A stretch of DNA of 64,000 nucleotides from Candidatus Zhuqueibacterota bacterium (GCA_029261995.1 JAJDAF010000010.1:196767-260766), one strand, 5' to 3'. Positions 32,343 to 62,195 are shown, counted from the stretch's first letter. Program-made: numbers and translations. Notes: generated by a model from the letters alone, not told the origin.

Positions 32343-33929
32343 ATGAAAAGGTTGGTCTTCTTGCTATGTGTTACAGCCACTGCTTCCGCAATCGGTCAGG
32401 TCACGCACCATGTCTCTTTGGTGGGCAATCTAAACACCGGACGCTATACAAATGATGTTTGGGGCTACGCCGACGATGCCGGCAATGAATACGCAATCGT
32501 CGGCCATCGAACCGGTACTGCGATTGTTCTCGTCACGCCAGACAGCCTGATTGAGGTCGATTTCGTTCCCGGCGTATCTTCGACCTGGCGCGACATCAAA
32601 ACGCACGGGAATTATGCTTACGTGACAGCCGACCGCGGTAACGAGGGCCTGCTTATTCTGGATTTGTCGCCTCTGCCGGACTCCGTGCGAGTTGTCGATA
32701 GATTCGCCAACGCCTTTACCCGGGCACACAACCTTTACATCGAAAACGGGCATGCCTACATTTCTGGCTCAAATAGCGCGCGCGGAGCCGACATCCTGGA
32801 TTTGGCGAATCCGGAAGTCCCGGTCGAGGTAGGCTCGATCACCTTCAATTATTTCCATGACATCTTCACCCGCAACGACACATTGTTTGGCAGCACCGAA
32901 CGCCGGGGCTCCCTCGCAATCTTCGATGTCACTGGTAAGGCGAGGCCGGCGCTTGTGGCGGAGATTCCGTTTCCCGGCGGCGGCATCTCGCACAACAGTT
33001 GGGCGACGCCTGATGGCCAGTTTGTCATGACCACAGAGGAGACCAGCGGTCAGTCGGTGAAGATGTGGGACATCAGCAACCTCGGCAATCCAACGCTGGT
33101 TGACGAATATCTGTCGGGTAGCAGGCTGGCACACAACACGCACATTCAGGGAGATTATGCTTATATCTCGCATTACGCGGATGGCGTGCGCATTCTTGAT
33201 ATTTCCGACCCCAGTCATATGGTAGAGGTTGGTGGCTTTGATACCAACGCCGGCACTTCCGGATTTGCGGGCTGCTGGGGCGCCTATCCATTTACGAACT
33301 CTGGCTACGTTTACGCCTCAGATCAGGACAATGGACTATTTGTGTTGGACTTCGACGGCACCCGCGCCACTCGAATAAACGGGCATGTTTTCGATTCTGA
33401 GACTGGCAAAATACTTAGTGGAGCCCAGGTTGAGGTGCTGGAGAATGGCATCTCTGCCATCAGTAACGTTGATGGCAAATACAAGCTTGGCCTGACCGCT
33501 GGCGGCATCTTCACCTTGAGGGTCAGCAACAATGGTTATGAAACCGCCAACGTATCGGTTATGGTGGGTGATGGCGAGACAGCCAACAAACTCATTTTTC
33601 TGAAGCCTTCCGTAACCACTGGAATCGCCGACGATTCAGGGTTGATTCCAGATGAGTTCAGCGTGGCGCAGAACTATCCGAATCCCTTCAACGGCGGCAC
33701 GACGCTGAGCTACAATCTACCGCTGACAGTCAGAGTCAAAGTGAGCATATTCAACACAGTGGGAAGCGAATTGCGAGTGTTGCAGGACGGCTTGCAACCG
33801 GCAGGACACCACCAGATTCAATGGGATGGCAGGAACGCACAGGGGCATGAGTTGCCGAGCGGGATTTACTATTATCAGATTGATGCCGCCGGTGAGGTGC
33901 TGGCCGGCAAAATGATCATGGTGAAGTAA
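32343..33929 (+). CDS. LVIVD-repeat (choice-of-anchor B) beta-propeller protein with carboxypeptidase-regulatory-like domain and T9SS C-terminal sorting domain
   Basis: A signal peptide is followed by LVIVD-like repeats (AIVLVTP, LLILDL, ADILDL, LAIFDV, VRILDI, LFVLDF). A CarbopepD_reg-like domain (GHVFDSETGKILSGAQVEV) precedes the C-terminal ~80 aa, which carry NYPNPFNGG...YYYQIDAAGE...K, matching the T9SS CTD (TIGR04183). Confidence 0.7.
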   Translation: MKRLVFLLCVTATASAIGQVTHHVSLVGNLNTGRYTNDVWGYADDAGNEYAIVGHRTGTAIVLVTPDSLIEVDFVPGVSSTWRDIKTHGNYAYVTADRGNEGLLILDLSPLPDSVRVVDRFANAFTRAHNLYIENGHAYISGSNSARGADILDLANPEVPVEVGSITFNYFHDIFTRNDTLFGSTERRGSLAIFDVTGKARPALVAEIPFPGGGISHNSWATPDGQFVMTTEETSGQSVKMWDISNLGNPTLVDEYLSGSRLAHNTHIQGDYAYISHYADGVRILDISDPSHMVEVGGFDTNAGTSGFAGCWGAYPFTNSGYVYASDQDNGLFVLDFDGTRATRINGHVFDSETGKILSGAQVEVLENGISAISNVDGKYKLGLTAGGIFTLRVSNNGYETANVSVMVGDGETANKLIFLKPSVTTGIADDSGLIPDEFSVAQNYPNPFNGGTTLSYNLPLTVRVKVSIFNTVGSELRVLQDGLQPAGHHQIQWDGRNAQGHELPSGIYYYQIDAAGEVLAGKMIMVK

Positions 33930-36903: not shown

Positions 36904-36954
36904 TCGATCGTTAGTTCCCTCCTCTCAACAACTCATTGAGACAAGAACTCTACT

Positions 36955-38208
36955 TTGGAAGGCTGGAAGACATTGAGCAAGACTAACGTTTACGACACGC
37001 TGAAAGAGCGCGGTTTCATAAAACAGGTGACTGACGAAGATGCGGTTCAAGCCGCGCTGGGCAATAGCCAGGTAACGGCCTACGTTGGATTTGACCCCAC
37101 GGCGGATAGCCTGCACGTCGGTAATCTGCTTGGCTTGATGGCGCTGGCCCACCTTCAGCGCGCAGGGCATCGCCCAATCGCGCTTATCGGGGACGGCACC
37201 GGAATGATCGGAGACCCGAGCGGCAAGACAGAGATGCGTCAACTGCTCACGCGCGAAAAAATCGCATCGAATGCGGAGAGGATCAATGCGCAAATCAATC
37301 GCTACTTTACGATGGACGGACATGCCGGCTTTGCGGTGCGCAACGCCGACTGGCTGCTGGACCTGAATCTGGTGGAATTCCTGCGCGACATCGGCCGCCA
37401 CTTTAGCGTTAACAGAATGCTGGCCGCGGAGTCTTACAAGGTGCGAATGGAGACTGGTCTGTCGTTCATCGAGTTCAACTATCAAATTCTGCAGGCGTAC
37501 GATTTTCTGAAGTTGTTCAGAAGTCATGGTTGTACCCTGCAAATGGGCGGAGACGACCAGTGGGGCAACATTATCGCGGGCACGGATTTGATTCGTCGTG
37601 TGGAAAGCCAACCTGCTGAAGGGCTGACCTGGCCGCTCCTGACCACCGCCGGCGGCCAGAAAATGGGCAAGACCGCCAAAGGCGCGGTATGGCTCGACGG
37701 CAGCAAAACCTCGCCCTACGAGTACTACCAGTACTGGATAAACGTCGATGACCGAGATGTCGTCGCGCTCCTGAAATACTACACGTTTCTGCCAATGACT
37801 GAGATCGAGAAGCTGGCGCGGCTCGAAGGTGCTGAGATTCGTAAGGCAAAAGAGGTGCTCGCCTACGAAACCACCGAAATCACGCACGGCAAAGGTGAGG
37901 CCGATAAGGCGCGCGAAGCCTCCCGCAGCGCTTTCGGTGGCGGAGGACAGGACATCAGCGCCGTACCCACCACCGAAATGGCGTCCAGCCGTTTTGACGC
38001 CGGGGTTCTGGTGGTCGATGTGTTCGCCGAAGTGGGGCTGACTAAGTCGAAGGGCGAAGCGCGGCGGCTCATCCAGCAGGGTGGGGCTTACGTTAACGAG
38101 AAGAAGGTCGAGACAATTGACGATAGCCTGACCATTGCGAACGCCGTGGAAGGAGCACTCATGCTGCGAGCAGGCAAGAAGCGCTACCACCGTCTTATGA
38201 TCAAGTGA
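36955..38208 (+). CDS. tyrS: Tyrosine--tRNA ligase (class I, HIGH/KMSKS with C-terminal S4 domain), TTG start
   Basis: HIGH region (DPTADSLHVGNLLGLM), KMGKT (KMSKS variant), the tyrosine-binding motif GFDPTA...IGDPSGK and a C-terminal S4 domain. An alternative TTG at 36973 would give a more typical N-terminus. Confidence 0.9.
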   Translation: MEGWKTLSKTNVYDTLKERGFIKQVTDEDAVQAALGNSQVTAYVGFDPTADSLHVGNLLGLMALAHLQRAGHRPIALIGDGTGMIGDPSGKTEMRQLLTREKIASNAERINAQINRYFTMDGHAGFAVRNADWLLDLNLVEFLRDIGRHFSVNRMLAAESYKVRMETGLSFIEFNYQILQAYDFLKLFRSHGCTLQMGGDDQWGNIIAGTDLIRRVESQPAEGLTWPLLTTAGGQKMGKTAKGAVWLDGSKTSPYEYYQYWINVDDRDVVALLKYYTFLPMTEIEKLARLEGAEIRKAKEVLAYETTEITHGKGEADKAREASRSAFGGGGQDISAVPTTEMASSRFDAGVLVVDVFAEVGLTKSKGEARRLIQQGGAYVNEKKVETIDDSLTIANAVEGALMLRAGKKRYHRLMIK

Positions 38209-38560
38209 GTCAGTCACGCTGCAGAACCACCTGCAATCCAGTTGCGGCAGCGATCTGCGCCAGGAGCTATTTTTTCCTTGAATTCGTTGCAAAATATTCA
38301 TTTCTTCCCCAATCGTAATTGTAACTACTAGGATTGCACGTGGTTCATCTGAAGTTCCTGCGAAGATCTTCGATTGGCTTTGTGAGTTCACTCCGGGTGG
38401 CAGATGGGCTCTGGAGGGTTCGGAACAGGCCACTTGACATTGAACAAAGAGTTGTTGATTTGATGCAAATTGTTTGTATGGCCCGCTTGCCGTCTCACCG
38501 TCAGGTCTTCACGTCGCCATGTGTAAACAATCGATTTCTGCAAAAGCGAAGGAGAGAAAC

Positions 38561-40353: not shown

Positions 40354-40986
40354 ATGAAGAAGATGATTTTACTGATCGCGGCAGGCGCTGCATCACTCAT
40401 GTTTCTGGCCATTCAGGAGTCAAAACTGCCGGCAAAAACCAGCAATCTGCGTTTGACTCAAATCGCCGGCCTTGAGCTGTTTGAACTCAAGGGCTGCACC
40501 GCATGCCACACGCTTGCGGGCAAAGCAGAAGTAACGCGTACACCGGTTGCAAACAATCGAGATGATGTCTGGTTCAGCGACCACGTTGGGTCCGAGTCCG
40601 AACTTGTGCTCGGCCAGGCCAAAAAGAAACGCAAGAAAAAGAAGCTACTCAAGAAGGAAGTTGCAGCGCTCAATGATTTCCTGTTCGAGTCAGACAGTGC
40701 CGCCAAGAAGCAGATTTTCGGACTCGCAGCAAACCTCAGAAATGGCGCCTACCTGGCCTACCAAAATAACTGCATCGGCTGCCACAGGATCGCCGGTGGA
40801 GGGAAGGAAACCGCGCCCGATTTGACTTTTGCGGCTGACAAGAAAAGCGACCGGAGCTGGCATATCAAAAATCTCAAAAACCCGCAGCAGTTTTCCGCCG
40901 AATCCGTGATGCCGGCGTTTGATGAAAAACTGTCGGATGAGCAGCTTGGGCAGATTGCGGACTACCTGCTGACGCTCAGGAAGTAG
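40354..40986 (+). CDS. Diheme c-type cytochrome (two CXXCH), periplasmic, with poly-lysine linker
   Basis: A signal/anchor precedes the heme motifs CTACH and CIGCH, with a Met ligand candidate (SVMPAF). A K-rich linker (KKKRKKKKLLKK) separates the two heme domains. Confidence 0.7.
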   Translation: MKKMILLIAAGAASLMFLAIQESKLPAKTSNLRLTQIAGLELFELKGCTACHTLAGKAEVTRTPVANNRDDVWFSDHVGSESELVLGQAKKKRKKKKLLKKEVAALNDFLFESDSAAKKQIFGLAANLRNGAYLAYQNNCIGCHRIAGGGKETAPDLTFAADKKSDRSWHIKNLKNPQQFSAESVMPAFDEKLSDEQLGQIADYLLTLRK

Positions 40987-41213
40987 GAAATCTAAACTGG
41001 CATTTGCAACTGGACCAATGAGCGCACTGATGACCAGCTCTTCGATTCCATTTCCGGCGGCTCAGGCAAATGTCAAAGTTTAGAAAAAAACTTCCGCCGG
41101 ACGAAATAAACGCGGCGGTCAGGTTTGTTCGCAGATTTAGAGAAAGATGGACGAAGTTCCGACACTCGGAAGTGACACAACTTTTTTTCTTGACTCATCG
41201 ACCAGGAATTTGA

Positions 41214-41714
41214 TTGCAGATATTCGACAAACAGTCTGACACGGCTGTTCCGCGCAGGCGCTTCTTGAAGGTGGGAATTGCCGCGTTGAACGGTTTTATT
41301 GCTTTTGCACTTGCGATTCCTGGACTCGGCTACTTGCTGACACCAGTTTTGCGGCGTTCGGATGGCGCCTGGATTCCTCTGGGGAATGCCTCGAGTTTGC
41401 AGAGTGCTGAGCCCCGCAAAGCCAGCTTCAAATACACCACCACGGAAGGCTACTCGCGCAACGAGAAAAACGGATTCGCATGGGTCGTCACGGACACCGA
41501 AGAAGCCTCGGGTATTTCGGCTTTTTCGGCAGTTTGTTCCCACACGGGCTGCAATGTCACGTGGCAGTCAAGAGAAAACCATTTCGTTTGTCCCTGTCAT
41601 GACGGACGGTACGACAGACGCGGCGCCGTGGTCTCAGGGCCGCCGCCGCGACCGTTGAGCAAGCTGGCCTTGAAGATGGAGAATGGCCAGGTGTTTGTGC
41701 GTTTGCCGTCGTGA
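41214..41714 (+). CDS. petC: Rieske [2Fe-2S] iron-sulfur subunit of cytochrome bc-type complex (Tat signal)
   Basis: A twin-arginine motif (RRRFLKVGIAAL) and TM anchor are followed by Rieske box I CSHTGC and box II CPCHDGRY. Confidence 0.85.
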   Translation: MQIFDKQSDTAVPRRRFLKVGIAALNGFIAFALAIPGLGYLLTPVLRRSDGAWIPLGNASSLQSAEPRKASFKYTTTEGYSRNEKNGFAWVVTDTEEASGISAFSAVCSHTGCNVTWQSRENHFVCPCHDGRYDRRGAVVSGPPPRPLSKLALKMENGQVFVRLPS

Positions 41715-41768
41715 TGGTGCTAAAGATAGAAGACGTCCTGCGAACTCATAACTGACAAATGACCTGAG

Positions 41769-43430
41769 ATGGAGCCCAATAAAAAAGGATTGTTGCAAGC
41801 GTTCAATCGTTTCCTGAAGGAGCCGATGCCAAAGGGTGTGAATTGGCCGAACGCGCTTGGATCCTGCTTGCTGGCGCTGGTGGTGGTTCAGGTAATCACG
41901 GGAATCCTTCTCTCTCTTTACTACTCCCCAAATGCGGATGTCGCCCATGACAGCGTGCGCTTTATCGAGCAGCAGGTTGTGTTTGGCAGTCTGATTCGCG
42001 GCATCCACTATTTTTCCGCCAGCGCGATGATGGTGGTCATCTTTCTACACCTCGCCCGCACATTTTTTTCCGGGGCATACAAACCGCCGCGCCAGTGGAC
42101 TTGGATTTTCGGCGTGGCTCTGTTGCTGGTGGTGGTCGGTTTTGCCTTTACCGGTTACCTGTTGCCCTGGGACATGAAAGCCTATTTCGCAACCAAAGTC
42201 GGGCTCAACATCGCCGGGATGACGCCGATAGTTGGCGACAGTCTGAAGCGAATCTTGCAGGGCGGCAGCGAGTTGGGCATGCTGACGCTGTCACGCTTTT
42301 TCGCCTTGCACGTGGTCGTTTTGCCGCTGTCTCTCGTTCTATTGATTGCCTTGCACATCACTTACATCAGGATGCACGGTCCAACGCCGCTGGGTCGTGG
42401 GGGCGAGCCAGGCCAAGTTTCCGGTACCTTTTTTCCACAGCAACTTTTCCGAGATTCGGTGGTGGCGGCTGGCGTGATTGGCCTAATATTCGTGCTGGCT
42501 CTCAAGTTTGGCGCGCCATTAGAGGCGCCGGCGGATCCCAACGACACCAGCTACATTCCTCGTCCGGATTGGTATTTCTATGGCGCGTTTCAGCTTTTGA
42601 AATTGTTTGAAGGGCGATTCGAAGTGGTTGGCGCCATCGTTTTGCCCGGGCTGTTTCTGGCTGTCATGGTGTTGCTTCCATTCCTTGATCGCAGCCCCGG
42701 CAGATCCCTCAAAGACCGCCCGGCTGTGGCCTCGATTGGAGCCATTGCCTTGTTGTCAATCGTCATTCTGACCGCGGTTGGGGCCTACACCGGCGAGAAA
42801 CAAAAGGAGAGCCTGACCTCCGACCGGTCAGTCGTCGATGTTGAAGGCGAGATCGAAGAGACTTTTGTGGTCGATCCGGCCATTGGCAAGCAGCTTTACG
42901 ATGGGCTGAAGTGTGCTGAATGTCATGCCCTGGCCTCGGAAGGCGTTAACAATCCGCCGGGCCTGGAGTTTTCGGGAAACAAGTACCGGCAGTCCTGGCT
43001 GGTGGCCTATTTGCAGCAACCGCACCGCGTACGCTGGCAGGGCAAGAACCGGCGTCCGGTTGCGCGCATGCCCAATTTCGATCTCACGGATCGGGAAGCC
43101 CTCAATCTCTCAGTCTACCTGCTCGAACTGCGGCGGGATAACAAATTCCCCGAACCTGAATTTGACTGGGCGGAAGCGGACAGCGAAATGGTAGATTCCG
43201 GAAAAGAGCTGACCGTAGATTACGGCTGCATGGGCTGCCACCGCATCGGGGACGAAGGCCAGAACGTCGCCCCGGAGTTGAGTCATGCGGGTAGCAAGTT
43301 GCGGGAAGCCTACCTGTTCAGCATCGTTCAAGAGCCAGACAAAGTCGTGCCCGGAACCTCGATGAAAAACTTTCAGCTCGAAGTTGAGGATATTGAGGAT
43401 ATCGTGGCATACTTGCGGCTCTTGGAGTAA
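41769..43430 (+). CDS. petB: Cytochrome b (b6/subunit IV-like, PDWY Qo motif) fused to C-terminal diheme cytochrome c
   Basis: The N-terminal half has cytochrome b helices with conserved His pairs (FLHLARTFF, ALHVVVLP, ALHITYIRMH) and the PDWY motif (IPRPDWYFYG). The C-terminal ~170 aa carry CAECH and CMGCH and end in a typical cytochrome c helix (IVAYLRLLE). Confidence 0.85.
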   Translation: MEPNKKGLLQAFNRFLKEPMPKGVNWPNALGSCLLALVVVQVITGILLSLYYSPNADVAHDSVRFIEQQVVFGSLIRGIHYFSASAMMVVIFLHLARTFFSGAYKPPRQWTWIFGVALLLVVVGFAFTGYLLPWDMKAYFATKVGLNIAGMTPIVGDSLKRILQGGSELGMLTLSRFFALHVVVLPLSLVLLIALHITYIRMHGPTPLGRGGEPGQVSGTFFPQQLFRDSVVAAGVIGLIFVLALKFGAPLEAPADPNDTSYIPRPDWYFYGAFQLLKLFEGRFEVVGAIVLPGLFLAVMVLLPFLDRSPGRSLKDRPAVASIGAIALLSIVILTAVGAYTGEKQKESLTSDRSVVDVEGEIEETFVVDPAIGKQLYDGLKCAECHALASEGVNNPPGLEFSGNKYRQSWLVAYLQQPHRVRWQGKNRRPVARMPNFDLTDREALNLSVYLLELRRDNKFPEPEFDWAEADSEMVDSGKELTVDYGCMGCHRIGDEGQNVAPELSHAGSKLREAYLFSIVQEPDKVVPGTSMKNFQLEVEDIEDIVAYLRLLE

Positions 43431-43953: not shown

Positions 43954-46900
43954 ATGCAGTATAAGCTACTAAGTTCTCTAGTTGTCCTGGTTATGTGCAT
44001 CGCGGCTTTTGGTCCCGCGGTTGCTCAACCTGCCAAGACGCCGCCCGTTGTTACCGGTCCGCAAACACTCTCAGGTTTCGGGGGCAACGCCGGCCTTTAC
44101 GAATTTTTGACCCAGGGAGAGACGGCGCGAGGCGACATCGGTGGCATCTCCACCGCTGAAGATTATTGGGTTTACATCGTCGGAATCGATGCCAGTGGCG
44201 TCACAGGACCCGACGGGCGTCAGATTCAATTCAATTTGCAGAATACGATTCAGGGCGAGACCGAACACCTTGGCATCAGTTTCTCGCTGGACAATCCTGA
44301 CATTGGCGGGTTTGACCTGCTGGAGTGCTACCAATCCAACGGCGGCGGATTGCTGACCCATGGCCTGGTGAGTGCTTCCCTCGATGTCACGGTTTTTGAC
44401 TTGCGTTTCAACTTCTCCAAAGACAACGCGGAAGACGGTTGGACCGTCACACCCTACTATCGCCTGTCGGGCGGTAGTTGGACCCCCTTCTCTGGTGGCT
44501 CGTTCACCGGCAACCCTGCCTTTGATTTCGACGAAGCCAAACTGACTGTCTTCTTTACGAATTCCATCGCAAATTCCGACGCCGCGGACGGCCAGGTCGT
44601 GTTCGACAACTTCTTTGTGCTCGGGCCAATTCCAGAGCCGATCACGGTCGTTTATGTTGATGATGCCTGGCAGGGTCTCGCACCGGGTGACGCAGTGCAA
44701 TTTCCCGGGGAGGACGACGTTCGGGTTATGGGGGTGAATGCATTCGCTACGATTCAGGAAGGCATCGATTCCTTTATCCAGATGCCGCCGGCAGCTCTCA
44801 GGGAAGACAGACTTTTGCCGCAGGCGGAAGCTGTTGAAGAAATCACGGTACTCGACTTAAATGTTGCGCCTGGAACCTACCAGGAAAATGTGGTCATTCC
44901 CTTTCCAGCACGGCTTCTCGGCTCTGGTAGCGGCAGCGACCCGCTGCAAGACACGATCATTGAGGCCGACCCTCAGAATACCGGATTTCCTGTCATCGAT
45001 ATTGCTGGTTTTGCGCCCGGCGGTGTTTCAGTTAATTCCCGCCTGGAGATTAGAGATCTCAGAGTCACTGGTGCGGTTGGCTCTGGAGATGCACCCAGCG
45101 GCATCTCCATCACCGCCGATGGATTTTTCGATGTCGCGGCCCAAGGCGCGTTGCAGGCCAGTGCCGCCGCCGGCGTATCGGTAATTCAATTCATGACGTT
45201 CAACAACGTCACCGCGGTCGATAATTCGGGCCACGGGATTGCTGTGAATTCTGACGGAATCGTGAGTGACCTACGCGTGGTCAATTGCGAGGTCTCGAAT
45301 AACAGCAACCACGGCATTTTCATCTCCTCCAGCATTGCATCATTCGACAGCCTGATTGTCGATAGCTGCACCATCGAGGACAACGGCATCACCGGAATTA
45401 CCTCAGGGCCGCAGGGTTCTCAGAATGTGGACAACATCCATATCAGTAATTCGACGCTTTCCAGAAATGGCGATGCACTCAGTCCTTCCGGTAGCGGTTC
45501 CGGCGATATCAGCCTGTTCGACTTTAACAGTGACGCTTCAATCACCAACGTTGATGTAACGGGGAACGGCGCGCACATCGGCATCCAGATTCGCGGTGTC
45601 GATAACGCAGGCACTTCTCCGGCGGGCAATGTCCAACTTGACGATGTCACCATTTCCGGGCAGTACCAGCATCCCAATACCTGGGTCGGCTCCGGACTTT
45701 TTATCGCCAACTTCAGTTCACTAAGCAGTGTCGGCCTGAACAATGTTCAGATCGATGTTTCGCCCGTGTCGCCCTCGAAGGATGTCATCAACCTTTATAA
45801 TGATAATATCGATGGCAGCCTGGACATTGGCAATATGCAACTGGGCGGCAATGCTGACCTGGATATTTTGAACAGCGCACCCGCTTCCGTGGATGCCAAC
45901 GATGCGGTGTTCACCAACGCGGCAGACAATTTCGAAATCGAGGACCGCATCTTCCATGGTCTCGATGACAATAGCGTCGGCTTGGTGCGCTGGACGGGCA
46001 ATCAGATTTATCTCACCGCGACAACTTTTTCAGCGCCGGATACCGCGGTAGTTCTCGACAATATCCTTTCTGTTGTGGATAACGGTGACACGCTGAACTT
46101 CGGCGCCGGCAATTACTACACAACTGCCGGGGCGGTGATCAGCAAGAGCCTGACCTTCTTCGGCGGCGCAGGCGTGATTTGCCGGCCACTTGGGGCCACG
46201 TCTGGCGCCTGGGTTACGGTGGATACACTTGTGACTCTGAATCTTGATAGCATCATCTTTGATGGTGCCGGGTACGACATCGGCATCGGCTGCCTGGTGA
46301 GAGGTCGCGGTTATTGCCGTAACCTGACCTTCAGGAACATAGTGGACGACAACGGCGGCGGCATTGCCCTGTGGCTACGCGGCGACCAGCCTGTTGAAGT
46401 TTCCGGCACCACCTTCAGCAATATTGGCGGCCTGTCCCCAGGTGGGTCGATCGCCTACGGCGCCTGCTTCACGGGAACTGGAGTTGTGGGGTCCACCTAT
46501 CGTGGTAACACCTACGTTGGCCGCGGTGCGGGAGCATGGGTTGAATATGGCCTGTTTCTCGATGCAGGTGCGCAGGTGAACATTGTCAGCAACACCTTTT
46601 ACAACCTGCTCGGTTTCACGAGTGTCGAGGGTGTCGTCGGGTCAGCCGGGATTTGCGTGGTTACCAATGGCGGTGGCGGCACATCTGCTTCCATCGACAG
46701 TAGCACAATCTACGACTGCTACAACGGAATCAAAGTTGGCGAATTCGATGGGGACCAGAGCTTCGCGATTATCAGGGATACGGAAATCTACCAGAGCACC
46801 GTTGGCCTTTGTATTGGCGGCGCGTTGTTTGTGAAGGCTGAGGACAACGACATCCACGGCAATGGCACCGGCGTTGTGGTGCGAAATGCCACGGTCTTTG

Positions 46901-48204
46901 ATCTCGACCGCGATCGCATCCAGGATAACGACGACGGCATCATTGTTGAAAATTCGTTTGGCGAAATTGACGAGTGCATCATTTCCAATAATTCAAGTGT
47001 TGGCTTGAGCATCTCGGATGAGTCCAGCACCGGCGTGACCGTGCACCGCAATGAATTCTGCACCAGCGGCGAAATGGGCATGGAGAATCTGGGCCAAACC
47101 ACGGTTGACGCCACCACCAACTGGTGGGGGGACTTCAATGGTCCTGGTGACCAGGGACCCGGCAACGGTGACGGCGTTGGCGTTGGCGTTGACTACAGTA
47201 ACTTCGAAACCAGTAGCCTGTTTGTGGATTCTCCGTGTTCGGAGTTGGCGTTGTGTGAGAACGATGGGGATGTGAATAACTCAGGCAGTCTAACCGCTCT
47301 CGACGCATTAGCAGCTTTCTCTATAGGATTGAACGGAGGCACATTGCCAGCTGAATTTGACGAGCCGGGATTCGAATGTGAAGTCTTGGCTGCAGACGTC
47401 AACTGCAACGGCAGTGTTACTGCGTTAGATGCGCTTGATATCTTCGAACGAGCCTTAGCCCAGTTACCGCCCTCTGCTTGTTTTGCGGGACAGTTGAAGT
47501 TGGACAAAGTAGTGGGCTCGCCACGAATCTCCTTGCTGGCGGTGGAGAGCGGCGCAGAAGAGACTGACAAAATCCGGGTAGCACTGGCTGCCTCCAACTC
47601 GAGTGGGCTTCGTGCCTTCAGTACAACGCTGAAGTTTCCGGCAGAGAGAGTTGATTTTCTTCGCGTGGAGCGCTCTGAAATGACCTCGGATTGGGCTCAG
47701 CTCGATGGTAAGGTACAGAAGGCAGGTGAATTGACGGTCGCTGGATTCAATGTCGAATTTGAAGAATCCAGCGAGTCAACGATTCTCTTTACCTTGGTTT
47801 TCAAGAAGAAGGATGAAGTTGGCCCCATTGAGATTGAATTGACCGGTGCGTATGATGAGCTAGCTGGAGCCATTTGGGAAAGGACCGTGGTCGATGGGAA
47901 TGTAGCTACTCCTGAGGTGTTTGCACTGCGCCAGAATTACCCCAACCCCTTCAATCCTGAAACTCTGATTGAGTACGATATCCCCAGTATCAGCCACGAG
48001 AAGGTGCCAGTGCGACTGACCATCTACAATGTAAAAGGACAGATCGTTCGAACGTTAGTAGATGCACAGAGATCGGTTGGTGCTCACAAGGTTAAGTGGG
48101 ACGGCAGAAACGACCATGGTTTGCAGGTTCCGTCCGGAGCCTACTTCTACACCATCAAAGCCGGAGATTTTAAAGACACAAAACGAATGATGCTGGTGAA
48201 ATAA
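43954..48204 (+). CDS. Giant secreted right-handed beta-helix (pectate-lyase/NosD-like repeats) protein with dockerin-like, cohesin-like and T9SS C-terminal sorting domains
   Basis: A signal peptide is followed by long arrays of parallel beta-helix repeats (NNSNHGIFISSS, IEDNGITGI, IHGNGTGVVVRNA, IQDNDDGIIVEN, ISNNSSVGLSI). A dockerin-like duplicated Ca-binding segment (DVNNSGSLTALDALAAF / DVNCNGSVTALDALDIF) and a cohesin-like module (aa ~1190-1310) follow. The C-terminus reads QNYPNPFNPET...YFYTIKAGDFKDTKRMMLVK, a T9SS CTD. Confidence 0.7.
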   Translation: MQYKLLSSLVVLVMCIAAFGPAVAQPAKTPPVVTGPQTLSGFGGNAGLYEFLTQGETARGDIGGISTAEDYWVYIVGIDASGVTGPDGRQIQFNLQNTIQGETEHLGISFSLDNPDIGGFDLLECYQSNGGGLLTHGLVSASLDVTVFDLRFNFSKDNAEDGWTVTPYYRLSGGSWTPFSGGSFTGNPAFDFDEAKLTVFFTNSIANSDAADGQVVFDNFFVLGPIPEPITVVYVDDAWQGLAPGDAVQFPGEDDVRVMGVNAFATIQEGIDSFIQMPPAALREDRLLPQAEAVEEITVLDLNVAPGTYQENVVIPFPARLLGSGSGSDPLQDTIIEADPQNTGFPVIDIAGFAPGGVSVNSRLEIRDLRVTGAVGSGDAPSGISITADGFFDVAAQGALQASAAAGVSVIQFMTFNNVTAVDNSGHGIAVNSDGIVSDLRVVNCEVSNNSNHGIFISSSIASFDSLIVDSCTIEDNGITGITSGPQGSQNVDNIHISNSTLSRNGDALSPSGSGSGDISLFDFNSDASITNVDVTGNGAHIGIQIRGVDNAGTSPAGNVQLDDVTISGQYQHPNTWVGSGLFIANFSSLSSVGLNNVQIDVSPVSPSKDVINLYNDNIDGSLDIGNMQLGGNADLDILNSAPASVDANDAVFTNAADNFEIEDRIFHGLDDNSVGLVRWTGNQIYLTATTFSAPDTAVVLDNILSVVDNGDTLNFGAGNYYTTAGAVISKSLTFFGGAGVICRPLGATSGAWVTVDTLVTLNLDSIIFDGAGYDIGIGCLVRGRGYCRNLTFRNIVDDNGGGIALWLRGDQPVEVSGTTFSNIGGLSPGGSIAYGACFTGTGVVGSTYRGNTYVGRGAGAWVEYGLFLDAGAQVNIVSNTFYNLLGFTSVEGVVGSAGICVVTNGGGGTSASIDSSTIYDCYNGIKVGEFDGDQSFAIIRDTEIYQSTVGLCIGGALFVKAEDNDIHGNGTGVVVRNATVFDLDRDRIQDNDDGIIVENSFGEIDECIISNNSSVGLSISDESSTGVTVHRNEFCTSGEMGMENLGQTTVDATTNWWGDFNGPGDQGPGNGDGVGVGVDYSNFETSSLFVDSPCSELALCENDGDVNNSGSLTALDALAAFSIGLNGGTLPAEFDEPGFECEVLAADVNCNGSVTALDALDIFERALAQLPPSACFAGQLKLDKVVGSPRISLLAVESGAEETDKIRVALAASNSSGLRAFSTTLKFPAERVDFLRVERSEMTSDWAQLDGKVQKAGELTVAGFNVEFEESSESTILFTLVFKKKDEVGPIEIELTGAYDELAGAIWERTVVDGNVATPEVFALRQNYPNPFNPETLIEYDIPSISHEKVPVRLTIYNVKGQIVRTLVDAQRSVGAHKVKWDGRNDHGLQVPSGAYFYTIKAGDFKDTKRMMLVK

Positions 48205-48244
48205 GGGCCAGCTTCATTCCTTGTTCAAAAAAGGAGATTTAGGT

Positions 48245-49285
48245 ATGATGAGCATTTTTCGACCGGCGAGTTGGCTGCTTTCCGCGACCACCTTTGTATC
48301 GCTAGCGTTTGGCCAGCCCCAGCTTGATCTTAGCCCGCCACTAAGCGTGGATGTGGAGCCACCGCCAGGACAGACGGTGATAATCCCGTTGACGTTGACT
48401 AATACGGGCGCAGAGCAAGTCAAAGCTGTCACTTTCGATTTCACCTTTCCGACTGCTAATCTGACGTATGTCGGGCTTGACACTGTTGGCACGCTGACTG
48501 GTGGCTGGACTCAAATGTCGGGACAGGAAAACACGCCGGGCGTGGTCTCAATACTGGGTTTCGGTAGTGTTGCTGCAGCTCAGACAGGTGTCTTGGTGAA
48601 TGTAACGTTTCAGTCGAAAGACCAATCTGGTGTTGGTCTTCTGCAACTTAGCAACTTCCAGGATCACGTCGCCGGCGCCACCACCACCGACGGCACCCTC
48701 AACAGCACCGTCCCAGTCGAGCTTGCCTCGTTCTCCGCCCAAATCGCCGACCAGGCAGTTGAGCTGAGTTGGCTCACCATCAGCGAAAGCAACAACTTCG
48801 GCTTCGATGTTGAAGAAAGCGCGGACGGCGAAGCTTTTACAAAGATCGGTTTTGTGAAAGGCCACGGCACCACGCTGGCCGAGCAACGCTACCAGTTTAT
48901 CGATAGCGACGTGCGGCCCGGCGCCCACTACTACCGGTTGAGGCAAATCGATTTCGACGGCGCCTTTGAATATTCCAGCACCCTGCAAGTGAACATGGCC
49001 GCGCCGCAGACGTTTGCCCTGGCGCAGAACTACCCGAATCCATTCAATCCGGAGACGGCGATTCAGTTTGCCGTGCCTGAAGCCGCGAGCGTGCAAGTGA
49101 CGATTTACAATGCGCTCGGCCGGGCAGTTCGAACTCTGGTAAACGGCGAGTTTGCTCCCGGCACCCACAGCGTCACCTGGGACGGCCGAGACGACAATGG
49201 CCAGCAGGCCGCGAGTGGACTCTATCTTTACACTGTCAAAGCCGGCAAGTTTGTACAGACGCGTAAGATGATTATGCTTCAGTAA
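48245..49285 (+). CDS. Cohesin-like domain protein with T9SS C-terminal sorting domain
   Basis: The ATG at 48245 has an RBS (aaggag). A signal peptide and a cohesin-like beta-sandwich (VIIPLTLTNTGAEQVKAVTFDFTFPTANLTYVGLD...VNVTFQSKDQSGVGLLQLSNF) precede a C-terminal CTD (AQNYPNPFNPETAIQF...LYLYTVKAGKFVQTRKMIMLQ). The ORF track start at 48221 is TTG. Confidence 0.6.
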   Translation: MMSIFRPASWLLSATTFVSLAFGQPQLDLSPPLSVDVEPPPGQTVIIPLTLTNTGAEQVKAVTFDFTFPTANLTYVGLDTVGTLTGGWTQMSGQENTPGVVSILGFGSVAAAQTGVLVNVTFQSKDQSGVGLLQLSNFQDHVAGATTTDGTLNSTVPVELASFSAQIADQAVELSWLTISESNNFGFDVEESADGEAFTKIGFVKGHGTTLAEQRYQFIDSDVRPGAHYYRLRQIDFDGAFEYSSTLQVNMAAPQTFALAQNYPNPFNPETAIQFAVPEAASVQVTIYNALGRAVRTLVNGEFAPGTHSVTWDGRDDNGQQAASGLYLYTVKAGKFVQTRKMIMLQ

Positions 49286-49552: not shown

Positions 49553-52500
49553 CTACCTCACCACTGCTAGTTTTCCTTTTCCGTTCTTCCCGTCGCCCTC
49601 AACATAGAAAATATAAATCCCTGACGCCATCGGAAGACCGTTCTCGTCATTGAGATCCCATTCGACACCACCGTTGCCGTCTGTCTCTTCGATGGTGCGG
49701 ATGAGCCGACCTGAAATATCGAGAATGCGAACCGTCGCTTGCGAGGTGAGACCCGCGATTGTGACGCCGGTATGACCAGCAGACGGACGGCAAGGATTTG
49801 GGTAAGCGTGCACATTATCGAGGTCGGTACTGCTGAAAATCAGCGCTGCCGTGTCGCCTTCGCCAAACCGGATGGCAATGCTATCCGCGCTACGGACATT
49901 GCGCACACGTAGAAAATACTCAATGCCAAACGGCCCAATCGGTGATTCTGGATCGATCTCCAGCAGCACCCGGTCGGGTGATTCAACAACCACAACGGCC
50001 GAGACAACGCGAACGTTGGGAGTGATTTCGTAATTGTCGATAGTGGAAGCCGATTCCGGGTCGAGAGCCAAACTGAATTGAATCTCGAGCCGGGTAGGCA
50101 AGACCAGGTTGACCGCCTCAAGGTAGGGCGACAGGGGCGCTTCCGTCACTTCGAATTCGACACCGCTTCTCGACGTATCAATGGGCGTGCCGTCCAGGTC
50201 GGCGACTCCCGCAACGCTGATCCGGTTTAAGCCCGGGAGCAGCCCCTGGGCGACGGTCAGGACAACCTCGCCATCCAACTTGTGTGAAACGGCTGACTCC
50301 ACAATTCCAGATTGGTTGACCGTGTAGCGGGTTTGATTGCGCACGGATTGGTTCATGCGCTCACTGAACTCTATCTGAATCTGATCGGGCGGCAAATAAG
50401 TCGCGCGCCGCAAAAAAGGCTTCGGTCCCGGCCGTACCCGGAGAGCGGTCGTTTGCCGGCTCTCCGTCTGCGCCGCTCCGCCGGCAACCGCTGAAACGGC
50501 ATACCAGTAGTCGATTCCAGTACTCACTGATGAATCGATGGCAGAGAATGCATCGGTTTGTGCGAAAAGGGCCAACCCATCCCGGCTCAATCCCCGGTAA
50601 ATGTTGAAGCCATCCGCGCCGCCGGCATGTTGCCAGCTCAGTTCAACCAGGGTAGAATCGAGAGGCCGCGCCCGGAAGGCGGTCGGCGTTTGCGGCCCTG
50701 CGAAGTCCGTGACAAACTCGAAGCCCGTTGCTTCCACGCCTGTGTTGAAGTAAAATTCATTGCCGCCGTTGCCGTTCCAATCTGCTACGATGGCAGTGTT
50801 GCTGCGGCTGGGTTTGGCGTGCCAGATGACCTGGTAGGATTCTGTCGCCTCGTTATAGTCCACGATATAAAAATCCGGGAAAATGCTGATGAGAATCTCG
50901 GGACGGCCGTCGTTGTCCACATCTCCCGAAGCAACGCCGCTGTCGAAATCACGCGGCGACTGGAAGCCGAAGAATGCTTGCTCCCAGACATGCGCGAAGT
51001 TATTGTCTGACTTGTTTTTGTAAATGCGAAAGCGCCAGTGGCGACTGTCAAACGCGCTCTCCAGGTTCAGACTCGGGTCGGAGTGGCAGCCGGCAACGAA
51101 TTCCTCCACGCCGTCGCCATCGTAATCACCGTGGGTGAGATAGTCCGTGGCATCCACCAGCGGCAGACGGTCTGACCAGGTGAATTCACTGCGGTTGTCG
51201 CCGCGATTCTCGTGAATAGTAATGTCGCCGTCGCCATCTCCCAGCAGAATTTCCAACTGGCCGTCGCCATCGAAATCGGCAATTTCAGAATGCGGAACTC
51301 CGGTTGTGTTGCTGCCTTGCGTAGGATTGGAGAAGGAATCGACAAGCGCGTATTTGCTCTCCGAGATGACTTCCCACAAGCCGAAGACATCATTTTGCCG
51401 CAGCACAAGCTCGCCTTGGCCGTCCTGGTCAAAATCCGCAAACCGGCTTGCCCACGGGCCGTCTGCATGCCATTTCGGCTGCGTCGGGTATTCGCCAGGC
51501 GCGGCGGCTTCGAAAATCCAGCTTTGTGAGCCGCGGCCCGTCAGGATTTCCAGCAGACCGTCACCGTCAGAATCGCCCCAGTCACGTGGGATAAAAACCT
51601 CGTCACCCGCAAATCGTTCCGTGAACGCGCCGTCTTCTAGCTCGAGGATTGTTAGCGGGCCGAAATTGAAATTGTCGTCGTATTCACTGAGCACAATTTC
51701 CGGCCGGCCGTCTCCATCGAAATCCGCGGGCCTGGCAAGCAGAAATCCGGAAGGAAATGTCAGCTCCGATTCGTCGGTCGCAATGCCGCCCAGCGGCGGC
51801 AAGTCAAGGTTGGCTGTCACCGGCGGGTCGGTGACAGCATTGAGCCCGGCGCCGTTTGCCGCCTCAATCAAGAATTCCATCTGACCCACGAAAATATCTT
51901 GCGTAAAGTGGAAGCGGTGCGTTGTTGTTCGGAATCCGAGTTTCTGTTCCGTGAAGGGGTGCGTAGACTCTTGCTTTCTGAAGAGAATGGCGGCATCGCA
52001 AACGTCGTCGGTTTCGAATTCGATCAGAAGGCTGTGGCGGTCGCCGTCCAGCATGGGCGTGTTGGTCACGCCGGTGATTTTCGGAGGTGAGCGGTCGATG
52101 AAGAACCGAATTTTATCTTCAACGTCGTTGGCACCCTGGTTTGTCGCCACCAGACGTAGGGTGTAAACGCTGTCCTGCAAAGCCGAGGTATCGAGATCGA
52201 ACAGATGCTGATTTCGCACCTGTCTGCCGGTCACTGTTTCGAGCATCTGCCAGCTTTCTGGCGTTTCACCGACCCCGATCTGCAATGAATAACCGGTAAC
52301 AAACGTGCCGCTCGCGGTTCCACGGATGGCGATCGGGCCCCTGGAGAATCCTTCATCGACCTGCGGCGAGATGAGTTCGGCCACTGAGAAGTAGGGTGAT
52401 TCCAGGCTGGCGGCAGCATCGATTCGGCCTGCGGCGAAGAAATTGTCCCAGCCCGGTGTCCCAAGGTCGGTCGAGGAAGTCGTCAGCAGTCCCTTGATAG

Positions 52501-53758
52501 ACTCGGGCGACAGTTGCGGTGTTTTCGAAAGAAGCAGGCCGGACAGTGCGGCAACGAACGGCGCTGAGGCAGATGTGCCACTGAAGCCGCCGTATTGGCC
52601 GTCACGTTTTGTCGTCAGGATGTTGACGCCTGGCGCTACCAGATCCACGGATGAACCGTAATTCGAGAAGCCTGCCAATCTGTCTTCCGAATTGGTTGCG
52701 CCCACGGAAATGGTTTCCGCGAAACCGGAGGGAAAATGAATCAAATCGGTTGCCGAATTGCCGGCCGACGCCACCAGAACGACTCCCCGGCTGTAGGCGT
52801 ATTTCATGACATCGCGCAGCAGGGGCGAGGCCACCGTGTCGCCGAAGCTCATGTTGATGATGCGGGCGCCGTTTTCCACGGCATAGACAATCGCCGATGC
52901 GACGTCGTCCTCTTCGAGAAATCCTAGCGCCGTGCCTGCGCGCAAGGCCATCACGCGGCAACCGTAGGCAAGCCCGGCAATCCCGCTACCGTTGTCGCCC
53001 GTCGCACCGATGATGCCGGCGACCGAAGTGCCGTGGCCATTCTCATCAAAGGGGTCGTTGTCCGGCGTTTCGAAATCACCGCCATCCGGGAAGCTTGGGG
53101 CGTCTGTGAAATCCCAGCCGCGAATGTCATCGATGAAGCCATTGCGGTCGTCATCGATGCCATTGATATCCGTGGAGTCCGCGCGGCCGTTGCCATCCAG
53201 GTCTTCGCCAGGATTGATCCAAACTGCATCTCGCAGATCGACATGGTCGTAGTCGATTCCCGTGTCAATCACACCAATAACGACATCGGGCGACCCCAGT
53301 TGCACCTCCCAGGCCTGCTCAGCACGCACGACCTGTAGGTTGATCTGCTCCGTGAACAGGGAATCATTTGGGACCCGCCGCAGCTTGAAGACGTGATTTA
53401 GCTGCGCATATTCCACTTCCGGCCGGTTGCGATAGGCCTGGAGGATTTCATCAAGATTCTGTTCAGGTGGGAAGTTGAGTTTGAATAGGTTGCTGAGGGA
53501 TGTTGCGCCGGGCGTTTGTGCAATGTTGGCGAGTTCGCACAGCGGAACAGCTTTCTGGAGGTTGAGTCTCTGATTGATGGTTGCGAGTGAATTCAGTCGG
53601 CCCGGGATTGCCGAGCCGTTCCAAGCTGCCGCCGACAGTGACTCGCCTTTGAGCTTGATTAGAATGGCGCCAGGCGTGTGTGTCGGCGTTTTGGAAAAGG
53701 TCACCCGCGCGAGTGTGAGCAGTGCGAGTAGAGCTAGCCGGGTTTTTGCTGTTGACAA
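49553..53758 (-). CDS. Giant S8 subtilisin-family serine peptidase with FG-GAP/VCBS repeat region, Ig/FN3-like domains and T9SS C-terminal sorting domain
   Basis: After the signal peptide the catalytic triad motifs are present: Asp (VIGVIDTGIDYDH), His (HGTSVAGIIGA) and Ser (GTSASAPFVAALSGL). At least 7 FG-GAP-like repeats follow (DFDGDGRPEIV, DSDGDGLLEIL, DFDQDGQGELV, DFDGDGQLEILLGDGDGD, DYDGDGVEEFV, DVDNDGRPEIL, DWNGNGGNEFY). The C-terminus is a CTD (AYPNPCRP...IYIFYVEGDGKNGKGKLAVVR). Confidence 0.8.
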   Translation of the reverse strand: MSTAKTRLALLALLTLARVTFSKTPTHTPGAILIKLKGESLSAAAWNGSAIPGRLNSLATINQRLNLQKAVPLCELANIAQTPGATSLSNLFKLNFPPEQNLDEILQAYRNRPEVEYAQLNHVFKLRRVPNDSLFTEQINLQVVRAEQAWEVQLGSPDVVIGVIDTGIDYDHVDLRDAVWINPGEDLDGNGRADSTDINGIDDDRNGFIDDIRGWDFTDAPSFPDGGDFETPDNDPFDENGHGTSVAGIIGATGDNGSGIAGLAYGCRVMALRAGTALGFLEEDDVASAIVYAVENGARIINMSFGDTVASPLLRDVMKYAYSRGVVLVASAGNSATDLIHFPSGFAETISVGATNSEDRLAGFSNYGSSVDLVAPGVNILTTKRDGQYGGFSGTSASAPFVAALSGLLLSKTPQLSPESIKGLLTTSSTDLGTPGWDNFFAAGRIDAAASLESPYFSVAELISPQVDEGFSRGPIAIRGTASGTFVTGYSLQIGVGETPESWQMLETVTGRQVRNQHLFDLDTSALQDSVYTLRLVATNQGANDVEDKIRFFIDRSPPKITGVTNTPMLDGDRHSLLIEFETDDVCDAAILFRKQESTHPFTEQKLGFRTTTHRFHFTQDIFVGQMEFLIEAANGAGLNAVTDPPVTANLDLPPLGGIATDESELTFPSGFLLARPADFDGDGRPEIVLSEYDDNFNFGPLTILELEDGAFTERFAGDEVFIPRDWGDSDGDGLLEILTGRGSQSWIFEAAAPGEYPTQPKWHADGPWASRFADFDQDGQGELVLRQNDVFGLWEVISESKYALVDSFSNPTQGSNTTGVPHSEIADFDGDGQLEILLGDGDGDITIHENRGDNRSEFTWSDRLPLVDATDYLTHGDYDGDGVEEFVAGCHSDPSLNLESAFDSRHWRFRIYKNKSDNNFAHVWEQAFFGFQSPRDFDSGVASGDVDNDGRPEILISIFPDFYIVDYNEATESYQVIWHAKPSRSNTAIVADWNGNGGNEFYFNTGVEATGFEFVTDFAGPQTPTAFRARPLDSTLVELSWQHAGGADGFNIYRGLSRDGLALFAQTDAFSAIDSSVSTGIDYWYAVSAVAGGAAQTESRQTTALRVRPGPKPFLRRATYLPPDQIQIEFSERMNQSVRNQTRYTVNQSGIVESAVSHKLDGEVVLTVAQGLLPGLNRISVAGVADLDGTPIDTSRSGVEFEVTEAPLSPYLEAVNLVLPTRLEIQFSLALDPESASTIDNYEITPNVRVVSAVVVVESPDRVLLEIDPESPIGPFGIEYFLRVRNVRSADSIAIRFGEGDTAALIFSSTDLDNVHAYPNPCRPSAGHTGVTIAGLTSQATVRILDISGRLIRTIEETDGNGGVEWDLNDENGLPMASGIYIFYVEGDGKNGKGKLAVVR

Positions 53759-62082: not shown

Positions 62083-62195
62083 TCAAGCCTCTTTTGATTT
62101 GACGCCCTGGCCTGTCCCGGGCGTTTTTTGTTTTGGCACGAATCTTCTTCCAGTGGAAGATTCGCGATTTGGCAAACTGCTGGAGGGATGTTGGG

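Follow-up and report, generated by a model that had tools for sequence, protein, structure and literature searches.

Positions 43954–49285 of a 64-kb stretch of DNA from a Candidatus Zhuqueibacterota bacterium (hereafter the window, meaning the whole stretch at its full length) encode an operon-like, conserved two-gene cassette of cargo proteins for secretion by the type IX system (T9SS). The product of gene 1 carries a dockerin followed by a cohesin immediately before its T9SS-sorting C-terminal domain (CTD), and the product of gene 2 carries a single cohesin and a CTD of its own. On sequence grounds, the gene 1 dockerin may well dock onto the gene 2 cohesin at the cell surface, a reading that we favour while rating it slightly below an even chance. 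The initial annotation of this DNA missed that the tail of gene 1 is not peculiar to it: judged by sequence, it is a stereotyped module present on hundreds of cargo proteins, which shifts its likely meaning.

The gene pair and its dockerin, cohesin and sorting modules

Two open reading frames (ORFs) lie on the same strand, gene 1 at 43954–48204 (+), encoding 1416 amino acids (aa), and a second one listed at 48221–49285 (+). As listed, the second ORF opens with a TTG at 48221; the true start of gene 2 is the ATG at 48245, its end remaining at 49285, and the public record of the gene 2 product (P0034, 346 aa) is called from this ATG. From the gene 1 stop to this ATG there are 40 bp, and the intergenic sequence examined contains no terminator-like hairpin. 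The pair is read as a two-gene operon because of this short gap, the strong Shine-Dalgarno sequence ahead of gene 2 and the lack of a terminator between the genes. In the gene 1 product, a signal peptide is followed by a lectin-like beta-sandwich, two right-handed beta-helix domains, the dockerin, the cohesin and a T9SS type A CTD. The gene 2 product consists of a signal peptide, the cohesin, an unnamed beta-rich domain and the CTD, and its sequence offers the cohesin as the only recognisable functional module. The features on which the argument rests are the following, with the supporting evidence in brackets (HMM, hidden Markov model; AF2, AlphaFold2).

43954..44025 (+): gene 1 signal peptide, aa 1–24, MQYKLLSSLVVLVMCIAAFGPAVA followed by QP (by inspection: hydrophobic core, AVA motif)
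47236..47481 (+): gene 1 dockerin, aa 1095–1176 (Pfam Dockerin_1, motifs, AF2, invariant residues)
47515..47919 (+): gene 1 cohesin of the 'post-dockerin' subtype, aa ~1188–1322 (BLASTP, profile, AF2, Foldseek, nearest neighbours)
47920..48204 (+): gene 1 T9SS type A CTD with stop codon, aa 1323–1416 (TIGR04183, FlgD_ig, family CTD HMM)
48231–48236 (+): Shine-Dalgarno sequence AAGGAG, 8 nt 5' of the gene 2 ATG (direct sequence reading)
48245..48313 (+): gene 2 start and signal peptide, aa 1–23, MMSIFRPASWLLSATTFVSLAFG followed by QP (by inspection; the P0034 start agrees)
48347..48706 (+): gene 2 stand-alone cohesin, aa ~35–154 (Pfam Cohesin; family HMM, 3e-41)
49010..49285 (+): gene 2 T9SS type A CTD with stop codon, aa ~256–346 (TIGR04183, Por_Secre_tail, FlgD_ig)

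The duplicated dockerin-type Ca-binding segment proposed for the 1416-aa protein is borne out by Pfam Dockerin_1 (PF00404), which matches aa 1105–1161 above its gathering cut-off of 22.9, scoring 26.7 bits when the whole protein is searched and 31.4 bits (E 2.2e-7) for the segment by itself. The segment is composed of two tandem repeats of ~22 residues, in each of which a 12-residue EF-hand-like Ca loop (D-x-N/D-x-D/N/S-G...D12) leads into a helix. These loops, DVNNSGSLTALD (D1106–D1117, 47269–47304) and DVNCNGSVTALD (D1148–D1159, 47395–47430), are the sole matches to the dockerin-loop pattern when the six frames of the window are searched with a regular expression, and the two repeats are identical at 13 of 22 positions in gene 1 and at 14 of 22 in the family consensus. 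The DVNxNG segments, for which a structural check as Ca-binding loops had been proposed, model as loop-helix motifs in a three-helix module with a predicted local distance difference test (pLDDT) score above 90. Its helices span model residues 31–42, 59–63 and 73–85 (pLDDT 90–97), and those at 31–42 and 73–85 begin within the loop ends. By its sequence, the gene 1 segment is a genuine type-I-like dockerin, for which binding of Ca2+ and of a cohesin is predicted.

This dockerin belongs to a Cys-rich subfamily. Cysteines 1095, 1101, 1142, 1151 and 1176 are conserved, and across 151 related dockerins three cysteines show 90–95% conservation. In the same set, a covarying pair links the helix 1 motif 'DALCAF' to the inter-repeat motif 'xxCD': 92 sequences have a Cys at column 50, and 91 of these 92 also have one at column 35, while both are absent from the window protein, P0003 and P0006. 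The pattern suggests disulfide stapling by two to three disulfides, which would be unusual for dockerins.

Pfam Cohesin (PF00963) matches the gene 2 product at aa 45–162 of the ORF counted from 48221 with 36.0 bits, above the cut-off of 24.1, in agreement with the small cohesin protein that had been placed close behind gene 1. The isolated gene 1 cohesin has no Pfam match even at E ≤ 10, and the PF00963 gathering cut-off is not reached. It does match the gene 2 cohesin by BLASTP with an E value of 5e-11 over ~130 residues, and the cohesin families of the two genes align with common motifs. The AF2 model of aa 1085–1325, with a mean pLDDT of 84.5 and a predicted TM-score (pTM) of 0.82, displays three helices and then nine strands. 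In a Foldseek search of the Protein Data Bank (PDB) with this dockerin-cohesin model, all of the top 50 matches are cohesins of types I, II and III, non-cellulosomal ones among them (probability 1.00). The best solved relatives found with the cohesin family profile are likewise all cohesins: 4UMS, 5NRM/5NRK, 2XDH from Archaeoglobus and 2JH2 from NagJ of C. perfringens. The beta-sandwich that the initial annotation had described as cohesin-like is, by homology and predicted fold, a cohesin of a divergent subfamily, and the regions in both proteins are specific to cohesins rather than generic Ig or FN3 domains, as seen from Pfam for gene 2 and from profile and fold for gene 1.

Cohesin subtypes were compared by a nearest-neighbour analysis of 308 cohesin domains. 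Cohesins that follow a dockerin find others of the same position in 95% of their top matches; those that precede a dockerin self-cluster at 94%, and the terminal cohesins of proteins with the order cohesin-dockerin-cohesin-cohesin at 100%. For the gene 1 cohesin, 40 of the 40 nearest neighbours outside its own family are post-dockerin cohesins. The same analysis ruled out that the gene 2 cohesin is a split-off pre-dockerin cohesin.

In Bacteroidota, cargo with a type A CTD is exported by the Sec pathway and then by the T9SS, after which the CTD is removed. Such cargo is modelled by TIGR04183 and PF18962. TIGR04183 (NCBIfam) scores 30.6 bits on gene 1 and 40.0 bits on gene 2 (cut-off 23), with both matches reaching the C-terminal residues, and the claim that both products end in a T9SS CTD stands. 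The CTD of gene 1 also matches FlgD_ig (42.6 against a cut-off of 27) and the family CTD HMM (1e-40), and that of gene 2 Por_Secre_tail (29.3 against 27) and FlgD_ig (59.3). Judged by eye, both proteins start with a Sec signal peptide, in which a hydrophobic core precedes AVA before Q in gene 1 and AFG before Q in gene 2. The window contains five genes for CTD cargo, which are the reason for regarding the source as a T9SS organism; the dockerin occurs on gene 1 only.

Conservation of the pair and spread of the tail

Seven full-length or near full-length relatives of gene 1, all from uncultured bacteria, keep every module at 38–54% identity, which places the module set far beyond chance. The Ca-loop residues and C1095, C1142, C1151 and C1176 are invariant across these orthologs. 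At the level of gene order, a gene like gene 1 has one like gene 2 behind it in eight of eight loci (the window, L002/L003, L004, L005, L006, L007, L015 and L016), which were reached from either gene and in which the modules were checked with family HMMs. This conserved pairing supports a functional link between genes 1 and 2. Each cassette combines exactly one dockerin with two or three cohesins. Two cohesins stand in tandem in P0035, an ortholog of gene 2, and in three of the eight loci, the window not being among them, gene 2 is followed by a third gene for a protein with a signal peptide, a cohesin and a CTD and no middle domain (L004 13597–14367, L006 10076–10867 and L015 8106–8951). By analogy, the cohesin dosage appears to vary as it does in a small anchoring scaffoldin.

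A HMMER search with a profile of the dockerin and cohesin (8 sequences, 243 positions) against 1.84 billion cluster representatives returned 1927 matches at E ≤ 1e-3, of which 706 reach E ≤ 1e-10 and 223 reach E ≤ 1e-30. Among the best 150, nearly all have one stretch that spans both modules and ends ~90–100 aa before the C-terminus; these proteins are 273–2419 aa long. The architectures mapped with family HMMs among the top 145 are as follows (Coh, cohesin; Doc, dockerin).

Coh-Doc-Coh-CTD: 74 of the top 145
Doc-Coh-CTD, the gene 1 type: 40 of the top 145
Coh-Doc-Coh-Coh: 12 of the top 145
Two to four additional upstream cohesins, then Doc-Coh-CTD: 6 of the top 145
Four to five cohesins, scaffoldin-like, including P0251 (four cohesins and a CTD): a handful of the top 145

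In 133 of 134 mapped tail representatives, the dockerin has a cohesin of its own behind it, mostly across a linker of 17–40 residues. The passengers ahead of the tail are diverse and include CARDB, FG-GAP, BACON, fn3, M10 and S8 peptidases, beta-propellers, VWA, Calx-beta and beta-helix domains. Because the post-dockerin cohesin accompanies the dockerin almost always, and on hundreds of unrelated cargo proteins, Doc-Coh-CTD looks like a portable, generic device for surface assembly or display in these lineages, and not like a dedicated cellulosome. At a threshold of 1e-5, Pfam finds Dockerin_1 in 2 and Cohesin in 13 of 45 related tails, so that standard annotation largely overlooks the subfamily. 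The order can also be reversed, as in P0029, which is organised as leucine-rich repeat (LRR)-Cohesin-Dockerin-CTD, with both modules above their Pfam cut-offs. As a side observation, P0216, P0234, P0237, P0239 and P0245 are among the 12 proteins that end in Coh-Doc-Coh-Coh with no CTD, and may represent a version of the tail outside the T9SS.

Possible arrangements at the cell surface

In the arrangement that we favour, both proteins would be exported via Sec and carried across the outer membrane by the T9SS, and would then lose their CTDs and remain on or near the cell surface, where the Ca2+-loaded gene 1 dockerin would bind a cohesin. That of gene 2 would be the most likely partner, since its gene comes directly after gene 1 without exception, no other role for it is apparent and the number of its cohesins varies in a scaffoldin-like manner. 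The small gene 2 protein would in this way serve as an anchoring cohesin that holds and organises a polysaccharide-active beta-helix protein on the surface. Assembly in trans is plausible in these lineages because T9SS-CTD proteins with four cohesins of the same family exist (P0251). The initial annotation had spoken of a surface-displayed, cellulosome-like assembly: the surface assembly is plausible, with real modules and a pair conserved in all eight loci, but the term cellulosome-like is overstated for a window with one dockerin, no glycoside hydrolase (GH) or carbohydrate-binding module (CBM) and no multi-cohesin scaffoldin.

Several observations weigh against docking of gene 1 onto gene 2. 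The gene 2 cohesin groups with free-standing cohesin-CTD proteins and with neither of the tail subtypes. Both proteins bear their own CTD, and gene 1, if itself surface-attached, would need no anchor from gene 2. No T9SS machinery genes (PorU/V/Z, SprA, GldKLMN) are found among the scanned ORFs of the window. The gene 1 passenger is only 8–15% identical to its Foldseek matches, a likeness at the level of the fold alone that leaves a role as adhesin equally open. Among other Doc-Coh-CTD genes, the examples examined, which have FG-GAP passengers, lack a cohesin gene within 5 kb; the pairing of genes 1 and 2 is therefore specific to the gene 1 family, and gene 2 as a general complement of the tail is ruled out by the same examples. 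Finally, the dockerin has its own cohesin behind it in 133 of 134 tails, and the two modules together reach a pTM of 0.82, where we would estimate ~0.5–0.55 for domains of these sizes placed independently. To us, this implies that the modules keep a fixed position relative to each other, in which case the dockerin may be engaged in cis and out of reach for gene 2; the cis interface is derived from the pTM alone.

Carried further, occupation in cis gives the main alternative picture of the tail, one that we regard as possible but rather doubtful, in which the dockerin would pack on the cohesin that follows it to form a rigid stalk, stabilised by Ca2+ and disulfides, ahead of the CTD. Such a stalk would stand where Porphyromonas cargo has an Ig-like domain before its CTD, and would be a module for structure or secretion competence, not an assembly system; the gene 2 cohesin would bind a dockerin protein encoded elsewhere, or nothing. 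The near-obligate adjacency of the two modules, the dedicated post-dockerin subtype with its 95% self-clustering, the narrow linker of 17–40 aa, which is long enough for binding in cis, and the high pTM of the two-module segment all agree with a stalk, as do the unrelated passengers that bear the tail with no cohesin gene nearby. Yet a pair that swaps domains would look just as cis-packed in the prediction of a monomer, multi-cohesin T9SS proteins of the same family (P0251) imply free dockerins, and the strictly conserved gene 2 partner (8/8) would be left without a role. Nor does co-divergence favour the stalk: in a mirror-tree analysis, admittedly a weak comparison, the dockerin correlates less with the post-dockerin cohesin (r 0.39) than with the pre-dockerin one (r 0.53; bootstrap confidence interval of the difference −0.21 to −0.04). 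Hundreds of cargo proteins each have a single dockerin with one or two cohesins, and a dockerin could instead bind the post- or pre-dockerin cohesin of another tail in trans, so that T9SS cargo would polymerise head-to-tail into a mixed surface layer, with gene-2-like cohesins that start or anchor the chains. Of the tail modules, the dockerin is best conserved (mean distance 0.48 against 0.66–0.70), as expected for a shared universal plug, and its repeats are highly symmetric. A protein of Archaeoglobus with both a cohesin and a dockerin reportedly interacts with itself. We nevertheless hold such a coat to be improbable: across a linker of 17–40 aa, binding in cis would outcompete binding in trans unless sterically blocked, and AF2 predicts a compact monomer.

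Very unlikely, in our judgement, is a true cellulosome-like multi-enzyme complex, in which a scaffoldin encoded elsewhere in the genome would gather dockerin-bearing polysaccharide-degrading enzymes, gene 1 included. It would fit the polysaccharide-lyase-like fold of the beta-helix passenger, the T9SS-anchored multi-cohesin proteins of related metagenomic sequences (P0251, P0155), the precedent proposed in Cloacimonadota and the TonB-dependent receptors that flank the cassette in three loci. However, there is one dockerin among the five CTD cargo genes of the 64-kb window, with no second one detected by regular expression or HMM, and the window genes scanned have no Pfam match to a GH or CBM. 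The window also lacks a multi-cohesin scaffoldin: gene 2 has one cohesin, its orthologs reach two (P0035), and four or five occur only in other metagenomic sequences. Proteins that bear the tail are mostly proteases, propellers and adhesin-like repeat proteins, not carbohydrate-active enzymes, and each tail brings its own cohesin, unlike the enzymes of cellulosomes.

Few known protein-protein connectors are stronger than cohesin-dockerin pairs, which find wide use in synthetic biology. To our knowledge, the surface organisation of T9SS cargo outside Bacteroidota is essentially unknown, and we know of no report of a Coh-Doc-Coh tail of stereotyped form whose cohesin subtypes depend on position. 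The tail sits immediately ahead of the T9SS signal in hundreds of unrelated proteins, which suggests an inherent rule by which secreted enzymes and adhesins are ordered on the outer membrane of abundant polymer-degrading sediment bacteria. We tentatively raise the possibility that (Coh)-Doc-Coh-CTD is a so far undescribed system for surface assembly shared across the lineages of KSB1, Calditrichota and related uncultured bacteria, in which a universal disulfide-stapled dockerin and position-specific cohesins would plug hundreds of T9SS cargo proteins into each other or into small anchored cohesins. If so, it would amount to a modular protein network on the outer surface, a non-cellulolytic Gram-negative counterpart of the cellulosome. 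The modules would constitute a new disulfide-stabilised, Pfam-invisible cohesin-dockerin family with three or more specificity classes; at present, they are annotated only as "FlgD Ig-like domain", "T9SS type A sorting domain" or "hypothetical". Should the tail be merely an intramolecular stalk, it would still be a useful corrective to reading cohesin and dockerin matches as "cellulosomes". The locus alone is of modest interest, and it is the generic tail that offers a concrete, testable and apparently undescribed principle by which abundant uncultured lineages could organise their T9SS cargo.

Related systems, the gene 1 passenger and neighbouring genes

The novelty that the initial annotation implied for cohesins and dockerins on T9SS substrates does not hold, as the combination has already been proposed for Cloacimonadota: Williams et al. 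2021 (PMC8542988) describe for Candidatus Stygibacter a putative cellulosome-like complex of a T9SS-CTD cohesin scaffoldin and dockerin-bearing enzymes. As here, the proposal is a genomic inference for a Gram-negative member of the Fibrobacterota–Chlorobiota–Bacteroidota (FCB) group known from metagenome-assembled genomes only, with dockerin proteins that have signal peptides and a cohesin protein with a T9SS-type CTD. In Ca. Stygibacter, a 3755-aa scaffoldin has tandem cohesins together with CBM2/CBM3, and the enzymes have C-terminal dockerins only, whereas in our cassette the dockerin is followed by its own cohesin and CTD on one chain, the partner with one cohesin is encoded in the same operon, and there is no CBM or GH. 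Full-text searching found only this paper to join cohesins or dockerins directly with the T9SS. Searches for cohesins or dockerins in KSB1, Latescibacteria and Calditrichota, including the Caldithrix genome paper, found nothing relevant. 'Cellulosome-affiliated' enzymes are attributed to Latescibacteria in a second-hand mention. In the searchable literature, we did not find a description of the (Coh)-Doc-Coh-CTD tail, of position-specific cohesin subtypes, of the Cys-rich dockerin or of the operon-coupled stand-alone cohesin.

With the clostridial type I pairs (C. thermocellum CipA/Cel48S; 1AOH, 2VN5, 5NRM), which are among the best matches, our modules share the duplicated 22-residue F-hand dockerin with symmetric repeats and the nine-stranded cohesin. 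They differ in their low identity (10–17%), in the 5–7 conserved dockerin cysteines, in anchoring by a T9SS CTD instead of a surface-layer homology (SLH) domain or sortase, in the lack of a multi-enzyme scaffold in the window and in the adjacency of both modules in one polypeptide. Non-cellulosomal cohesin-dockerin modules, including both in one protein, have long been known according to Peer et al. 2009 and the Archaeoglobus work, as these are cited in PMC9012536, and the survey of anaerobic methanotrophic (ANME) archaea in PMC9012536 describes proteins with one dockerin and several cohesins. The cassette resembles such proteins (A. fulgidus 2XDH; C. perfringens NagJ/NagH, 2JH2 and 2OZN; ANME) in using the modules outside cellulose degradation, and 2XDH and 2JH2 are among its best matches, but none of them is linked to the T9SS. 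Compared to T9SS cargo of Bacteroidota, such as the gingipains of P. gingivalis with their passenger, Ig-like domain and CTD, it shares the Sec signal, the terminal type A CTD and a beta-sandwich before the CTD. In gene 1, from a lineage outside Bacteroidota, this penultimate beta-sandwich takes the form of a cohesin, with a dockerin ahead of it.

The remaining domains of the two proteins are the following.

44029..44628 (+): gene 1 N-terminal beta-sandwich with a ConA-like lectin/glucanase fold, aa ~26–225 (AF2 pLDDT 65–80, all-beta; Foldseek)
44647..45933 (+): gene 1 right-handed beta-helix domain 1, aa ~232–660 (AF2 model; Foldseek; precomputed PF13229/PF05048 on the family)
46003..47208 (+): gene 1 right-handed beta-helix domain 2, aa ~684–1085 (AF2 pLDDT mostly >90; Foldseek)
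48710..49018 (+): gene 2 middle beta-rich domain of no named family, aa ~156–258 (no significant Pfam match)

The AF2 model of gene 1 aa 26–1090 (pLDDT 82.7, pTM 0.67) consists of a beta-sandwich and two right-handed beta-helices. The N-terminal beta-sandwich has partial Foldseek matches to GH16, polysaccharide lyase (PL) family PL7, galectins and legume lectins, and is kept in the orthologs and in P0009, P0010 and P0013. The second beta-helix ends with a conserved NWWG motif, of which N1056, W1057, W1058 and G1059 are invariant. The best Foldseek matches of the passenger are two-domain PL6 alginate lyases (7O7T, 5GKD, 7DMK, 8BWK), along with the A-modules of the mannuronan epimerases AlgE4 and AlgE6 (2PYG, 5LW3; TM-score on the target 0.54–0.56), and further matches include GH87, phage tailspike depolymerases, NosD and Pel9A, with 1RU4 among the matched structures. 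Beta-helix domain 1 matches the PL6 alginate lyases, the A-module of the AlgE4/E6 epimerases, tailspikes and NosD. The passenger shares the tandem beta-helix fold with AlyGC (5GKD), Patl3640 (7O7T) and AlgE4/AlgE6 (2PYG, 5LW3) at Foldseek E values of 4e-7 to 2e-4, but is 11–13% identical to these enzymes and by sequence does not belong to their families. PF13229/PF05048 appear in the precomputed annotation of gene 1 and its orthologs. A hmmscan of aa 234–1099 gave no match to a beta-helix family, Pfam found nothing significant in the isolated N-terminal domain or beta-helix region, and the full-length family profile matched FlgD only, via the CTD, among PDB sequences, with no family-level match for the passenger. 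From these models, the view that the passenger is a polysaccharide-active enzyme or binder is supported, with no specific activity assigned. Of the earlier suggestion of a lyase, hydrolase or adhesin, the fold shared with lyases, epimerases and depolymerases upholds the first part in general terms; no specific activity is supported, and adhesin is an equally open choice.

P0009 and P0013 have the same beta-sandwich and beta-helix passenger on other C-termini, with Asp/Cys-rich thrombospondin-type-3-like repeats and no CTD; passengers and tails are therefore shuffled independently. In gene 2, aa ~156–346 (48710–49285), covering the middle domain and the CTD, form a common C-terminal tail in their own right, with 4079 matches at E ≤ 1e-3 among 8000 candidates. 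The middle domain has the motif VELxSFxA...L.W.T.SE.NNxGFxVE and no Pfam family, and elsewhere this tail is found behind C1 peptidase, GH10, beta-helix and other passengers.

The closest relatives with names come from an 'uncultured Calditrichaceae bacterium' (L010, 51% identity) and candidate division KSB1 (P0155, P0044). In GTDB, an alignment longer than the dockerin-cohesin segment recovered four loci, one of them with a named lineage. The source is probably an uncultured FCB-group bacterium similar to Calditrichota/KSB1, a placement that rests on the Calditrichaceae title and KSB1 names only. The flanks of the cassette differ among loci, with genes for cytochrome c, Rieske protein or cytochrome b in the window, L002, L005 and L016 and a TonB-dependent receptor in L006, L007 and L015. 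The respiratory neighbours (window 40354–43430; L002 4424–7239; L005 4889–5524 and 11660–12361; L016 8498–9160) comprise a FixO-like cytochrome c, a Rieske protein and a cytochrome b of 553 aa with cytochrome c domains fused at its C-terminus, and may reflect either a functional relationship or inherited gene order.

Convergent to the cassette, 49553–53758 (−) encodes a 1401-aa CTD cargo protein with an S8 subtilase, a fervidolysin-like propeptide, FG-GAP repeats and Big_5-like domains, and with neither dockerin nor cohesin. Elsewhere in the window, 32343–33929 (+) encodes CTD cargo with LVIVD and CarboxypepD_reg domains and 62133–63569 (+) CTD cargo with a lamin-tail domain. At 36925–38433 (−; 502 aa, no Pfam match) and 36955–38208 (+; 417 aa), two ORFs overlap in antisense.

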